Virus record (IMG/VR): IMGVR_UViG_2534682164_000009
Source of the DNA: a virus
Taxonomy: Duplodnaviria; Heunggongvirae; Uroviricota; Caudoviricetes
DNA length: 33,715 bases
Direction: 5' to 3' (one strand)
This document shows positions 9,339-12,780 of this stretch, one piece after another (position 1 is the first letter of the stretch; every line of letters starts with the position of its first letter). Made by a program: the position numbers and the translations under genes. A model generated the notes under the pieces. That model was not told the DNA's origin, made no database searches, and saw nothing but the letters and a program-made list of their open reading frames with translations.

Positions 9339-9414
9339 GGCCCTTTAGCTCAGTGGTGAGAGCGAGCGACTCATAATCGCCAGGTCGCTGGTTCAAATCC
9401 AGCAAGGGCCACCA
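9339..9414 (+). tRNA. tRNA-Ile2 (anticodon CAU, lysidine type; ileX/ileZ-like)
   Basis: Manually folded 76-nt cloverleaf with 3' CCA; anticodon loop CTCATAA; closely resembles recalled E. coli ileX. Confidence 0.8.
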
Positions 9415-9421
9415 TCACATA

Positions 9422-9498
9422 CCGCCATTAGCTCATCAGGAAAGAGCGCCAGCCTTCGAAGCTGGCTGCGCGGGGTTCAAGTCCCCGATGGCGGTCCA
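9422..9498 (+). tRNA. tRNA-Arg (anticodon UCG)
   Basis: Manually folded 77-nt cloverleaf (acceptor CCGCCAT/ATGGCGG, CCA end); anticodon loop CTTCGAA. Confidence 0.75.
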
Positions 9499-9511
9499 TT
9501 ATCTGCATCAT

Positions 9512-9588
9512 GCGTTGTTAGCTCAGCCGGACAGAGCAATTGCCTTCTAAGCAATCGGTCACTGGTTCGAATCCAGTACAACGCGCCA
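9512..9588 (+). tRNA. tRNA-Arg (anticodon UCU)
   Basis: Manually folded 77-nt cloverleaf (acceptor GCGTTGT/ACAACGC, CCA end); anticodon loop CTTCTAA. Confidence 0.8.
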
Positions 9589-9602
9589 CACTTATTTTCC
9601 CT

Positions 9603-9627
9603 GGCTCGCTTTTGCGGGCCTTTTTTT
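9603..9627 (+). terminator. intrinsic terminator after the tRNA cluster
   Basis: Hairpin GGCTCGC-TTTT-GCGGGCC followed by T7. Confidence 0.65.
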
Positions 9628-9630
9628 AAA

Positions 9631-9880
9631 TGTCTCACAATTCAGACGGTTGACAGTTGTCTGTTTTGCGGGGAGTTTGTTAAAAGAAACTGGCATGGTG
9701 AATCCCCCTGTGCGGAGGGGCAATCAGCGAGTAGGTATATGGGATAATCGCGGATTCAGGTGCTGGTACTGAATTCACCGGGAGGCACCCGGCATCATGC
9801 AATGGCACATAGCGCCACTCTCCAGCCCTCTCCGGAGGGGCTTTTCTGTGCCGGATACATCACAGTTTCTGGAACCTTAG
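9631..9880 (+). repeat. module 1 of a paralogous pair (CTCACAATTCAG, TTGACAGTTG, hairpins, GGGAGG-ATG short ORF, terminator-like hairpin)
   Basis: Shares ordered motifs with module 2: CTCACAATTCAG…GTTGACAGTTG…CATGGTGAATCCCCCTG.GCGGAGGGG…CACCGGGAGGCACCCGGCA…CCTCTCCGGAGGGG+T-run; 27-codon ORF 9797-9880. Confidence 0.6.
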
Positions 9881-10097
9881 GTACTACAGTATCAGTCAGG
9901 GTGCTATATTTTCAGATGTGATGAAAGCCTGTCAGCAGGCAGGGCGTATCGGAAATGACCCAGTAGAGAAAACGTTGACTCAGATACCGGTGCTGAGTTA
10001 CCGGGAAACCGGCATCACATGACCGCTATCCTTCCAGGCCCATCCGCTCCGGTGGGCCTTTTTACTGCAGAAAACAGGTTCCCCGTTAAATGCTATG

Positions 10098-10381
10098 TTG
10101 CTCACAATTCAGTAAGTTGACAGTTGCCTGTCAGACTGGGCATTTGTTAAAAAAATTTCGCATGGTGAATCCCCCTGAGCGGAGGGGCGACTGGTGACGG
10201 TATAATCTCTGATTATCAAAACGAGAATGACGCGGGTTTAGTGGCACCGGGCTGAACTCACCGGGAGGCACCCGGCACCATGTGCATGATGATACAGATA
10301 CGCGGCTTTAGCCCCTCTCCGGAGGGGTTTTCTTGTGGGCAAAAAAAGCCCGCGCTGGGAGACGCGGGCGGCAAGGAATAA
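10098..10381 (+). repeat. module 2 of the paralogous pair
   Basis: Same motif order; palindrome TGACAG-TTGC-CTGTCA 10118-10133; TATAAT 10201-10206; hairpin CCCCTC-TCCG-GAGGGG + T-run 10312-10334; 33-codon ORF 10280-10381; reverse-strand terminator 10341-10369. Confidence 0.6.
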
Positions 10382-10562
10382 ACAATAAAACGTGAAGTAA
10401 TATTTCAGCTGGCGAATAATACCCCATAGTAATCACTCTGCGCAACTGCGCGGTCTTTTTCGAATTGCGGGCTGTCGTCTCTCTTCTGCCATTGTCCTGT
10501 AACTTCCGGACTTCAGCCCGCTCCTTATTTTACTCACAATATTATCCCGGCCGGGAGGATTC

Positions 10563-12415
10563 ATGGCATTTAAACACTATGACGTGGTCAGGGCGGCATC
10601 GCCGTCAGACCTTGCGAAACGACTGACACAAAAACTGAAGGAGGGCTGGCAGCCGTTTGGTAGTCCGGTGGCCATAACCCCTTATACCCTGATGCAGGCG
10701 ATTGCAGCAGAAGGTGATGTGGTCGTCAGTGGTGCAACTGAGCCGGAGTGGTACTACGTCATCGTACTGGCCGGGCAATCCAATGCCATGGCTTACGGTG
10801 AAGGTCTTCCGCTTCCGGATTCATACGATGCGCCCCATCCGCGCATTAAGCAACTGGCCCGTCGTAACACAGTGACTCCCGGTGGTGAAGTATGCGTATT
10901 TAACGACATCATTCCTGCTGACCATTGTCTGCATGATGTTCAGGATATGAGTACGATTAACCATCCCCGGGCTGACCTGAGCAAAGGGCAGTACGGCTGT
11001 GTCGGACAGGGCTTACATATTGCCAAAAAACTGCTTCCGTATATCCCTAATAATGCGGGGATCCTGCTGGTACCATGCTGTTGTGGTGGTTCGGCATTCA
11101 CCCAGGGCACGGAGGGGACATTCAGCGAGTCCACGGGGGCCAGTCAGGATTCGGCTCGCTGGGGAGTGGGTAAGCCGTTATATCAGGATCTGCTTTTCCG
11201 CACGAAGGCAGCATTGCAGAAAACCCGAAAAACGTTTTGCTGGCGATATGCTGGATGCAGGGGGAATTCGATATGACGAATGCCAGTTACGCCCAGCAGC
11301 CAGCAGCATTTCTTGCAATGGTACAGCAGTTCCGTGCTGACCTTGCCGGGCTGGCGGCGCAGTGTCACGGTGGAAGTCCGGCATCAGTCCCCTGGATTTG
11401 TGGCGACACGACATACGCGTGGAAACAAGAACACGGTACGCAATATGAAGTGGTATATGGTGCATATAAAGGTAAAGAATCCCAGCAGATTTATTTTGTT
11501 CCCTTTATGACCGATGGTAGCGGAGTTAATACACCGACAAACAACCCGTCAGAAGATCCTGATATTGCCGGGTCTGGTTATTACGGTTCGGCATCCCGAA
11601 CGAACAAAAACTGGGTATCATCAAATCGCCCGACGCATTTCAGCTCATGGGCGCGTCGTGGCATTATTCCCGATCGTATGGCAACTGCTATTCTGAACGT
11701 AGCCGGTCGCACCTTAGCCTTCATTAGTGGTAAGGCACCGGAAATCAAACCCTCGCCCGGCGGCGACACGCCATCGGGGCCGTCTGAAGATGCATCCATA
11801 CGCACAATCTCCCTGTTGCCGACAGCCGGAGACGCTGCTGCGCAGGGCTGGAGCATTAAGAATGGCGGAGTTCAGTTGTCAGATGGTGTATTTAAGATCA
11901 CCAAGCAGAGCAATAAAGCCTGGTCCCTGACGCGCCCGGTGGATGACGCAGTCTCCCTGCTGACACGGGGTGGCAGACTGAGCTGTAAGTTTCGACTGTC
12001 AGGCGCACTGACCAACAACCAGTTCGGTCTGGGAATTTATCTGTATACCGATGTAGCGTTACCTGACGTCGTGGCGATGACCGGGACTGGTAACCCGTTC
12101 CTGATGTCGTTCTTCACCCAGACCACAGACGGCAAACTGAATCTGATGCATCACAAGAAAGCAGGAAACACAAAGTTGGGCGAGTTCGGGAATTACAGTA
12201 ACGACTGGCTGACGCTGGAGCTGGTGTTCACCGCCGGCAGTGCCACGGTTACTCCGAAACTGAATGGAGTGGCTGGCCCGGCATTCCAGGTCATAAAAGA
12301 CAGTCTGACACTGGGGCTGAATGCGCTGACGCTGACGGATATTACCAAAAATGCAGCGTATGGCGTTGAGATAGAAAGTCTGGTGCTGGAGATAAATGCA
12401 CCGGCATCATCATAA
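10563..12415 (+). CDS. nanS-p-like sialate O-acetylesterase (SGNH/SASA type) with apparent -1 frameshift near 11215-11225
   Basis: GQSN motif ([15 protein letters not shown]); two overlapping ORFs (10563-11276, 11237-12415) join if one base is restored in an A-run. Confidence 0.65.
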
Positions 12416-12500
12416 AAAGTGAGCCAGCCAAATGGAAGGTATCGTTAAACTCACCGGTAGTGTCAGTGGGTCGTCTGAGATGCCTGCATGAGTTATCAGA

Positions 12501-12529
12501 GCCATCAGTACTTAACTGGTGGCTTTTTT
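12501..12529 (+). terminator. intrinsic terminator between the esterase gene and holin
   Basis: 8-bp stem GCCATCAG/CTGGTGGC (one G-U), loop TACTTAA, T6. Confidence 0.6.
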
Positions 12530-12564
12530 ATTGTTGTCAGCTTCCGGATAACGGGAGACGGGGT

Positions 12565-12780
12565 ATGTACCAGATGGAAAAAATCACAACAGGTGTGTCA
12601 TACACCACGTCAGCGGTGGGAACGGGCTACTGGTTCCTGCAGTTGCTGGACAGGGTTTCCCCGTCTCAGTGGGCGGCAATAGGCGTGCTGGGGAGTCTGC
12701 TGTTTGGGCTGCTGACATATCTGACTAACCTGTATTTCAAAATCAGAGAGGACCGTCGTAAGGCTGCACGGGGAGAGTAA
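12565..12780 (+). CDS. S: class II holin (phage-21 S-type pinholin), dual-start MYQM
   Basis: 71 aa …[51 protein letters not shown] matches recalled S21; GGGAGACGGGG Shine-Dalgarno; Met1 and Met4. Confidence 0.85.

Follow-up and report, generated by a model that had tools for sequence, protein, structure and literature searches.

In the Stx2 phages 933W and phage 86, the late region runs in the order Q, PR'/tR', the tRNA genes ileZ, argN and argO, stx2AB, STnc100/AsxR, nanS-p, and the lysis genes S, R and Rz. STnc100, named EcOnc27 or sRNA103 in EHEC, is an Hfq-binding sRNA encoded directly 3' of stx2B (PMC12711010, PMC12370729). EcOnc27/sRNA103 was seen as a discrete Hfq-bound RNA by Northern blot and Hfq-CRAC, and sRNA dyads lie between the late promoter and the lysis genes in at least eight Sakai prophages (PMC7873438). 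In Salmonella LT2, ChIP-exo detected RpoD binding at the STnc100 copies (PMC10794520). PasD, located upstream of a sialate esterase gene, was reported to be related to STnc100 (bioRxiv 10.64898/2026.05.13.724894), and PasD1/2 gave bands of ~172 nt and had many RIL-seq partners (PMC8550237). E. coli and Shigella-like genomes abound in lambdoid prophages that lack stx while having an Stx-phage late region, and sRNAs flanking the stx position have already been described.

Here we analyze a locus of this kind in a 33,715-nt stretch of viral DNA (IMG/VR record IMGVR_UViG_2534682164_000009), referred to below as the window. We are confident that this is the part of a defective lambdoid prophage that holds late-gene control and accessory genes, with a backbone as in some Stx2a phages, an unoccupied stx slot, and a non-coding stretch that is a cluster of sRNA genes. 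The toxin-free Stx-type late layout itself is real, ordinary, and already described in E. coli; it carries little weight as a discovery, and its practical value lies in annotation.

Late-Gene Control Region

The original prediction described an Stx-phage-like order of Q, PR'/tR', a methyltransferase, three tRNAs, an esterase, and a phage 21-type holin. Every part is there in that order, and alignment to Stx phages upheld the synteny: positions 6478–9626 of the window form a single 3.15-kb block with 93.8% identity to the Stx2a phage Stx2_EH1910 (LC567834.1), ending at the argO terminator, and 933W gives the same breakpoints. The block covers rusA, Q (273 aa in the phage), a 65-aa ORF, the 352-aa methyltransferase, tRNA-Ile2, tRNA-Arg-UCG, tRNA-Arg-UCU, and the argO terminator.

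The Q-type late antiterminator gene (6847–7667, plus strand; PF03589, 156 bits) reads as 253 aa with a 43-aa tail, differing from intact 273-aa Q genes by three 1-nt indels at ~7212, ~7289, and ~7573. Both deletions fall in A-runs, and small frameshifts at A-runs in this window, the Q indels included, may be sequencing errors. If the indels are real, Q-dependent read-through no longer operates in this prophage.

Directly downstream lies a PR'-like late promoter with a lambda-like promoter-proximal pause element (7673–7712, plus strand), to which we assign function by resemblance. It reads TTGATT-16-TGgTAAATT-6-AACGATGGG, with TTGATT at 7673–7678 and the −10 hexamer at 7695–7700, and shares the layout of lambda PR', TTGACT-17-TAAATT-6-AACGATGGG. 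The terminator scan placed a tR'-like intrinsic terminator at 7748–7773 on the same strand (AACCCGCCGCCGAGCGGGTT followed by a T-run). The promoters proposed are guesses at the level of a consensus match, which a generic scan did not flag.

The 65-aa ORF (7892–8089, plus strand) had no Pfam match, and its position is kept in Stx2_EH1910 and in E. coli H3. It is followed by an intact N6/N4 DNA methyltransferase gene of 352 codons (8240–9298, plus strand; PF01555, 144 bits), which is equal in length to the Stx2_EH1910 gene with 49 mismatches and no indels. No restriction partner for the methyltransferase was found nearby.

tRNA Genes and the Unoccupied stx Slot

A sigma-70-like promoter is predicted just upstream of the tRNA genes (9301–9329, plus strand; TTGAAG-17-TATTAT, 9/12), at the position matching the annotated pT of 933W. 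The first of the three plus-strand tRNA genes is tRNA(CAT) at 9339–9414 (ARAGORN; Rfam tRNA, 72.5 bits), an ileZ-type tRNA-Ile2 that reads AUA after lysidine modification; its counterpart is tRNA-Ile in the 99% identical E. coli H3 locus (RefSeq) and ileZ in 933W. ARAGORN, Rfam, and the 933W annotation agree on the other two, an argN-type tRNA-Arg (TCG) at 9422–9498 and an argO-type tRNA-Arg (TCT) at 9512–9588. The terminator scan then places an intrinsic terminator at 9603–9627 (plus strand), 93.5% identical to the 933W terminator annotated as "upstream of the stx genes", which forms the left edge of the stx slot.

The slot itself is empty. Homology to Stx2_EH1910 stops at 9626 and restarts at 9631, so that 4 nt (9627–9630) stand where Stx2 phages have a 1335-bp cassette comprising the stx2 upstream region, stx2A, and stx2B. 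This cassette (L010 10655–11989 in Stx2_EH1910) has no counterpart in the window. The window has the late backbone of a Shiga-toxin-converting phage (Q, PR'/tR', ileZ-argN-argO, nanS-p, S), as judged from the Stx2_EH1910 block, the 933W breakpoints, and the Pfam and tRNA calls, and has neither stxA nor stxB between Q/tRNAs and the lysis cassette. The 9626/9631 junction offers an exact reference point for what the stx2 insertion site looks like when empty.

The predicted absence of any StxA- or StxB-sized ORF held: with StxA at 315–319 aa and StxB at 89 aa as the yardstick, the longest stop-free stretch in any frame of 9589–10562 has 73 codons, and ORFs with a start codon reach 53 aa at most. 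Neither tblastn with the A and B subunits of Stx1 and Stx2 (word size 2, E limit 100) nor blastn with the whole stx regions of 933W, H-19B, and phage 86, promoters included (word size 7), returned a credible stx fragment; the blastn queries matched the window in their flanks and nowhere else. The best tblastn match (27.3 bits, the single one below 0.05) lies on the minus strand within an sRNA unit (unit 2, below), contains an internal stop, and was equalled by 2 of 40 shuffled windows; it was rejected. Synteny and the absence of an stx fragment together support the earlier reading of an stx-free relative, or of a locus that lost or never acquired stx. The GC content of the stx2 cassette is 44.2% against 51.1% for both of its flanks, and the gap in the window (50.9%) resembles the window flanks.

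STnc100-Family sRNA Units

The original prediction placed paired non-coding modules in the gap "instead" of stx. The modules are there: the gap contains a direct repeat of 88 nt (82% identity, 467-nt spacing) and a repeat of 31 nt (94%), and the module start motif TCACAATTCAGNNNGTTGAC occurs twice against 0.01 occurrences expected by chance. The word "instead" did not survive comparison, as one such module also follows stxB in 933W, phage 86, H-19B, and Stx2_EH1910. The modules are Rfam STnc100 sRNA genes, an ordinary downstream neighbor of stx, here in tandem, and no substitute for it.

Two units exceed the RF02076 gathering score of 47 bits, both as full-length matches. Unit 1 (9631–9853, plus strand) scores 123.6 bits, with a predicted RNA from ~9693 to ~9850; the PasD2 5' end GCATGGTGAATCC matches at 9693, and a terminator lies at 9824–9842. 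Unit 2 (10101–10340, plus strand) scores 161 bits, with a predicted RNA from ~10160 to ~10337, and holds the position that in Stx phages belongs to the unit after stxB. Its region is continuous with 933W (L003 5749–6297) at 78% identity and with Stx2_EH1910 at 87%. Elsewhere the family scores 208 bits in 933W and phage 86, where it lies ~75 nt past stx2B, 179 bits in H-19B downstream of stx1B, and 154 bits in Stx2_EH1910.

Between them lies a diverged unit of the same scaffold (9892–10065, plus strand), which matched RF02076 over its full length at 30.1 bits (E 4e-5, local search), below the gathering score, and is not a member by the curated threshold. It resembles a family member in its fold, with helices maintained through compensatory changes, and has its own TGcTATATT extended −10 element (hexamer 9905–9910) and a terminator at 10036–10059. 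Over five loci its mean column identity is 93%, compared with ~76% for the whole intergenic region, and the flanking units differ far more.

Minimum free energy z-scores of the single units were weak (−0.2, −2.5, and −1.4); since these are too weak to argue for structure, a comparative test was used. Across 13 units, including middle units and PasD2, 96.8% of the cells pair, and compensatory changes are seen in 13 of the 31 pairs, values somewhat inflated by predicting the structure from the same alignment. None of 500 shuffles reached the observed value, and slid controls paired in 42–55%. The most variable part of the units is the stretch between the closing helix and the terminator.

On the opposite strand, a convergent sRNA candidate (10341–10440, minus strand; 5' end not defined) ends in a strong intrinsic terminator at 10369–10348, found by the terminator scan. 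It is identical at 49 of 54 nt to an uncharacterized EPEC RIL-seq candidate, E2348C_1409.E2348C_1408.IGR, and sits where AsxR lies in 933W. An AsxR or AgvB identity was rejected for want of an Rfam match: the AsxR covariance model (RF02703) gave no match at E ≤ 1 in 7500–13500, while 933W and phage 86 score 88 bits at the corresponding position. A 25-bit OmrA-B match at 10341–10429 was set aside as a terminator resemblance.

Esterase, Lysis Genes, and Prophage Decay

Downstream of the sRNA units, a nanS-p-type sialate O-acetylesterase gene (10563–12415, plus strand; Pfam DUF1737, SASA, and DUF6645) lacks one A in an A-run at ~11220, a 1-nt deletion that splits it. It differs from the intact 617-aa gene of E. 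coli H3 by 7 mismatches and this 1 indel; the split may reflect a real pseudogene or an error in the draft sequence. Between the esterase and the holin (12416–12564), PasA of E2348/69 in its 85-nt and 236-nt forms had no blastn match, and PasA/PasC was rejected at this position on lack of BLAST similarity.

A hairpin with a T-run upstream of S (12498–12533, plus strand) is conserved with 933W, to which positions 12496–12780 are 93% identical. The ORF at 12565–12780 (plus strand) has the features of a phage 21 S-type class II holin, a predicted pinholin: it encodes 71 aa beginning MYQM with Met1/Met4 dual starts, matches PF04971 at 112.5 bits against a cut-off of 26, and has 7 mismatches to the Stx2_EH1910 holin. 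It is followed by a YdfR/DUF1327-like gene (12785–13060, plus strand) frameshifted by a 1-nt deletion in an A-run at ~12866; PF07041 matches only its first 32 aa. Of the endolysin gene R, the first 53 nt are left (13154–13206, plus strand), homology to the E. coli H3 lysozyme gene ending at 13206.

The late region is terminated by an IS3-family insertion sequence (13489–14751, minus strand; rve/HTH_21 domains), which forms a 1060-nt perfect inverted repeat with a copy at 2153–3419, together with an IS21-family element (14744–16470; IstB/rve domains). Phage genes resume at 16661 with the tail gene Z, and the window lacks genes for terminase, portal, and head. With R cut at 13206 by the IS elements and head genes missing, the prophage is defective.

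Distribution and Interpretation of the Locus

Of 5426 complete E. coli genomes, 1029 have the contiguous junction of argO terminator and module, as do 10 phage records, among them Nil3 and PhiR49_2. At 97–99% identity it occurs in about one-fifth of complete E. coli genomes, non-STEC strains included. The whole tandem array, a 974-nt arrangement up to 99.4% identical, is found in 353 complete genomes, including that of the type strain ATCC 11775, and the full 3442-nt interval at 99% in 461. Other occupants of the slot exist, for example TerB with DUF3927. As to whether stx was lost or never acquired, the evidence leans toward an unoccupied insertion slot, because the junction is clean, about a fifth of complete E. 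coli genomes share it, and the stx2 cassette is compositionally foreign.

The main competitor is descent from an Stx2 phage whose toxin cassette was lost later, either through recombination with an stx-free lambdoid prophage resident in that cell or through a precise deletion joining the conserved flanks. We consider this unlikely, though it has points in its favor: both flanks have close Stx2 phage relatives (Stx2_EH1910 at 93.8% on the left, phage 86 at 95.1% on the right), the prophage is decaying on an IS-rich host contig, and for loci of this type the Pas sRNA preprint offers, as one explanation, that stx was acquired and then repeatedly lost (bioRxiv 10.64898/2026.05.13.724894). Lambdoid phages recombine freely, and an stx-bearing ancestor could become an empty allele without a scar. 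Against secondary loss, there is no scar, no partial stx, and no remnant of the stx promoter; the near-identical junction extends to non-STEC strains and the type strain; and the compositional outlier is the cassette, not the empty state. Moreover, the left and right flanks have their best relatives in two different phages, a pattern that mosaic exchange would predict and a single recent deletion would not. That the tandem modules or the missing stx are an artefact of the draft assembly, through repeat collapse or expansion, is hardly credible: the window is indeed a draft contig with several homopolymer-type frameshifts, but the 353 complete genomes with the 974-nt arrangement and the 461 with the longer interval argue against it.

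A different reading concerns the modules themselves, which might be cis-acting structured parts of the late transcript, serving processing, stability, or read-through on the tRNA-to-lysis mRNA, and not independent sRNA genes. They do lie inside the Q-dependent late unit on the same strand, a Q-modified polymerase would ignore each of their terminators, and their fold is conserved more than their sequence. We nevertheless regard this as improbable, given that homologues are known as discrete Hfq-bound RNAs (EcOnc27/sRNA103, PMC7873438; PasD1/2, PMC8550237), that RpoD binds the STnc100 copies of Salmonella LT2 (PMC10794520), and that the variable stretch lies between closing helix and terminator, as expected for a seed region.

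The analysis demonstrates the gene content, synteny, and breakpoints, the lack of stx, the assignment of units 1 and 2 to their family, and the conserved, covarying fold. Our preferred scheme, in which we infer promoters, expression, Hfq dependence, targets, and the direction of stx gain or loss, takes the empty slot to be, most likely, an insertion site for accessory genes that stands unoccupied, and not the scar of a deletion. Transcription from PR' would halt at tR' unless the polymerase is Q-modified; a modified polymerase would read on from the 65-aa ORF and the methyltransferase through the three tRNAs for rare codons, the sRNA units, and the nanS-p esterase to the holin and, before its truncation, the endolysin. 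The 974-bp non-coding stretch would consist of self-contained sRNA genes, namely three tandem STnc100-scaffold units and the convergent minus-strand RNA. Each tandem unit would combine a closing helix, three internal hairpins, a variable single-stranded stretch, an intrinsic terminator, and its own promoter-like element. Judged from their homology to EcOnc27/sRNA103 and PasD1/2, the units are most likely Hfq-dependent trans-acting regulators; they would be expressed from the lysogen with no need of Q, targeting host mRNAs through the variable stretch, which differs in each of the three.

More tentatively, with somewhat less than even confidence, we suggest that the three-gene tandem array, with one scaffold, three different single-stranded stretches as possible seeds, and an unannotated sub-threshold middle member, is an expandable sRNA cassette carried as prophage cargo. 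If all three units are expressed with separate target sets, prophages carry an expandable sRNA array beside the toxin site of their relatives, and tandem duplication with seed divergence would be a route of prophage sRNA diversification; the Pas study reported only dispersed copies. Together with its sub-threshold middle unit, the array adds modestly to the view of prophage sRNA diversification. For annotation, the gap should read "STnc100-family sRNA genes" and not "paired non-coding modules replacing stx".

Comparison with Known Systems

Among Stx phages, Stx2_EH1910 matches the window beyond the slot as well, in the order STnc100 unit, nanS-p esterase, and holin. It alone of the two has the stx2 cassette, an iraM-like gene ahead of nanS-p, and lysis genes that are intact, and it has one STnc100 unit; the window has no stx, three tandem units, another element on the minus strand, and a lysis cassette that is truncated. 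For 933W and phage 86, the tRNA trio with its terminator is 92% identical to the window, and the stx cassette has its boundaries at the same two points. The identity of phage 86 on the right extends from 10102 onward. Unlike the window, 933W has another Q type, no methyltransferase between Q and the tRNAs, and AsxR on the minus strand after STnc100.

The stx-free prophage of E. coli H3 is 99.2% identical over the whole 9339–12780 interval and has the same three-unit array; its Q, esterase, endolysin, and terminase genes are intact, whereas the window copy is IS-disrupted and frameshifted. An STnc100 unit also directly follows the argO terminator in ATCC 11775, Nil3, PhiR49_2, and a non-Stx prophage of O157:H7 TR01, with a single unit in TR01 and Nil3 against three in the window.

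The convergent arrangement recalls the AsxR/EcOnc27-type dyads of EHEC prophages (Tree et al. 2014, as covered in the review PMC7873438). EcOnc27 and AsxR abut in 933W, and likewise unit 2 (plus strand) and the minus-strand element meet at 10340/10341 in the window, where the partner is neither AsxR nor AgvB. PasD2 shares with the window units the scaffold, the 5' end GCATGGTGAATCC, and the place upstream of a sialate esterase. It is 55–58% identical to units 1 and 2 in global alignment and itself falls below the Rfam threshold; PasD was rejected as a direct orthologue, BLAST similarity in the window being confined to the first 13 nt of PasD2. Since the single-stranded stretches of the window units differ from those of PasD, their targets should differ too, and whereas Pas copies are reported as dispersed, the units of the window stand in tandem.

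Gene Order and Synteny with Stx Phages

All of the elements named in the original prediction were recovered, in the named order, by ORF listing, tRNA search and Pfam scans: a Q-type antiterminator gene (6847–7667; PF03589, 156 bits), a DNA methyltransferase gene (8240–9298; PF01555), three tRNA genes with the anticodons CAT (9339–9414), TCG (9422–9498) and TCT (9512–9588), a DUF1737/SASA esterase gene (10563–12415) and a gene for a phage-21-type holin of 71 aa (12565–12780). Between Q and the next ORF lies a promoter-like site, TTGATT-16-TGgTAAATT, followed after 6 bases by AACGATGGG; this is the same layout as that of lambda PR' (TTGACT-17-TAAATT-6-AACGATGGG), and the terminator scan placed a terminator downstream of it at 7748–7767. 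Another promoter-like site, at 9301–9329, occupies the position of the annotated tRNA promoter pT in 933W. A sok antitoxin RNA (RF01794, 112 bits; 4259–4434) was detected by Rfam in the prophage's nin region, implying a hok/sok-type toxin–antitoxin locus.

The proposed synteny with Stx phages held on alignment, and more closely than could have been known when it was put forward. The Stx2a phage Stx2_EH1910 (LC567834.1) carries, in order, rusA, a 273-aa Q, a 65-aa ORF, a 352-aa methyltransferase, three tRNAs, stx2A, stx2B, esterase, holin and endolysin genes, and 6478–9626 aligns with it as one block of 3157 columns at 93.8% identity. The right end of this block coincides exactly with the T-run of the argO terminator. 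Beyond it, Stx2_EH1910 has 1335 bp, made up of stx2A and stx2B with the region upstream of them, that are without counterpart in the window; the match restarts at 9631 (82%) or 10102 (87%), and then at the esterase and the holin. Against 933W and phage 86, both breakpoints lie at the same bases. The blocks and their matching breakpoints thus show the stx2 slot in its empty state, laid out as the argO terminator, four bases and a conserved motif, TCACAATTCAG...GTTGAC. A Stx-like architecture without stx is confirmed in the window, and the results support taking it for an stx-free relative of Stx phages.

The arrangement is very common. Among 5426 complete E. coli genomes, the 3442-nt interval 9339–12780 was present in 461 (about 99% identity, at least 80% coverage), the full 974-nt array in 353, including the type strain ATCC 11775, and the contiguous junction of argO terminator and module in 1029, non-Stx prophages of O157:H7 included. 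The junction also occurs in ten phage records, such as Nil3 and the inducible PhiR49_2, and TerB and DUF3927 genes were seen as alternative cargo of the slot.

Search for stx Remnants and Origin of the Empty Slot

No ORF of StxA or StxB size exists in the gap between the third tRNA gene and the esterase gene (9589–10562), as predicted: no frame stays open for more than 73 codons, and no ORF with a start exceeds 53 aa. No stx remnant was found in the window by tblastn with Stx1A, Stx1B, Stx2A and Stx2B at very permissive settings or by blastn with whole stx regions; when the complete regions of 933W, H-19B and phage 86 were used, the flanks matched and nothing else did. The single tblastn match below an E-value of 0.05 (Stx2A residues 47–103, 36% identity, 27.3 bits, minus strand, 10331–10167) was rejected, as it lies on the minus strand and its translation contains a stop codon. 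Its top score was equalled or beaten in 2 of 40 dinucleotide-shuffled windows, and it falls inside sequence whose homolog in Stx2 phages lies 3' of stx2B.

As to whether stx was lost or never acquired, which the original prediction had left undecided, we lean towards an unoccupied slot. This preference rests in part on the junction, which is clean and common to many unrelated strains. An stx allele might instead have been replaced, scar-free, through recombination with an stx-free prophage, which strikes us as rather unlikely. An unoccupied slot is further favored by base composition, since the stx2 cassette differs in GC content from its flanks (44.2% versus 51.1%), whereas the window's gap, at 50.9%, has the same content as its own flanks, and by the flanks themselves, whose closest relatives on the left and right are different phages, as mosaic exchange would give.

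State of the Prophage

The prophage is defective. The endolysin gene is recognizable by homology only up to 13206, and this truncated gene is followed by an IS3-family element (13489–14751) and an abutting IS21-family element on the minus strand (14744–16470; istA of 390 aa, istB cut to 185 aa). The first phage gene past them is the tail gene Z, at 16661, and the window lacks genes for spanin, terminase, portal and head proteins; the two elements stand in place of the endolysin, spanin, terminase and head genes. The stretch from the truncated endolysin start to the IS3-family copy (13207–13488, about 280 nt) matches neither the stx-free prophage of E. coli H3 nor this IS, and its translations look repetitive. 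The IS3-family element, about 1.26 kb long, occurs in three copies, at 1–507 (partial, at the contig start), 2153–3419 and 13489–14751. The two full copies form perfect inverted repeats over 1060 nt that flank the entire nin/Q/late region, and so could invert this region or mediate its loss.

Relative to intact relatives, single-base indels were seen in Q, the esterase gene and a ydfR-like gene (7212, 7289, 7573, 11220 and 12866). They may be homopolymer sequencing errors, in which case the pseudogenes are not real, because the window corresponds to an entire contig of a draft assembly (ADUU01000022.1 of GCA_000188795.2) and all but one of the five indels are deletions within runs of A. The tail tip gene J (24798–27976) is split into two overlapping ORFs, 24798–26441 and 26435–27976, possibly by another frameshift or sequencing error.

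A Predicted Three-Unit Small RNA Array

The paired non-coding modules, which had been taken to sit in place of stx, belong to the STnc100 family (RF02076; gathering score 47), scoring 123.6 bits at 9664–9853 (unit 1) and 161 bits at 10131–10340 (unit 2). In 933W and phage 86, a member of this family starts 75 nt 3' of stx2B and scores 208 bits; the family also scores 179 bits after stx1B in H-19B and 154 bits in Stx2_EH1910. The module is therefore the usual downstream neighbor of stx and not its substitute. In Stx2_EH1910 (L010, 12246–12569) and E. coli 5CRE51 (L012, 3725–4060), the STnc100 unit and the esterase are separated by a minus-strand gene for an iraM-like anti-adapter; content 3' of the sRNA unit thus also varies among relatives. 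PasD2, a prophage sRNA of E2348/69, begins with GCATGGTGAATCC, and the same string at 9693 and 10160 suggests these as predicted RNA starts.

Between the two units, 9892–10065 gives a weak full-length STnc100 match of 30.1 bits, under the Rfam threshold (E-value 0.001 in a 6-kb search, 4e-5 locally). This middle unit has its own extended -10 element, TGcTATATT, and its own terminator (10036–10059). Its mean column identity across five loci is 93%, with almost no variation between the -10 element and the terminator, whereas the intergenic region of PhiR5_2, taken as a whole, shares only 76% identity with the window. Across prophage lineages it is more strongly conserved than the neighboring units.

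RNAalifold on 13 units (unit 1 and 2 types, middle units and PasD2) predicted a closing helix, three hairpins and a terminator. In this fold, pairing is kept in 96.8% of cells and compensatory changes occur at 13 of 31 pairs, figures for a structure predicted on the same alignment; none of 500 shuffles matched this result, and slid controls paired at just 42–55%. The stretch from closing helix to terminator differs in each of the three units, as would be expected if it is the target-pairing region.

Comparison with Known Systems

Directly after unit 2, a strong minus-strand terminator (10369–10348) lies within an element spanning 10341–10440, at the position held by AsxR in 933W. AsxR itself gave no Rfam hit at E ≤ 1 across 7500–13500, and no PasA homolog was found in the window. 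The element is a convergent sRNA candidate distinct from AsxR; 49 of the 54 bases at 10341–10394 are identical to an uncharacterized EPEC RIL-seq sRNA candidate, E2348C_1409.E2348C_1408.IGR.

Published work is in agreement with the module being a neighbor of stx. STnc100 has been placed 75 nt downstream of stx2 (PMC12370729), and it overlaps EcOnc27/sRNA103, an sRNA that binds Hfq (PMC12711010). The stx genes have been described as flanked by StxS and, at the opposite end, by the AsxR/EcOnc27 dyad; in at least eight Sakai prophages, dyads of this kind are located between late promoter and lysis genes (PMC7873438). According to a 2026 preprint, which also discusses a Stx-phage origin of such loci, PasD is related to STnc100 and lies upstream of the sialate esterase (bioRxiv 10.64898/2026.05.13.724894). 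Both the late-region architecture and the sRNA family are thus already known, and the sole, mildly new point is the tandem three-unit array with its sub-threshold middle member.
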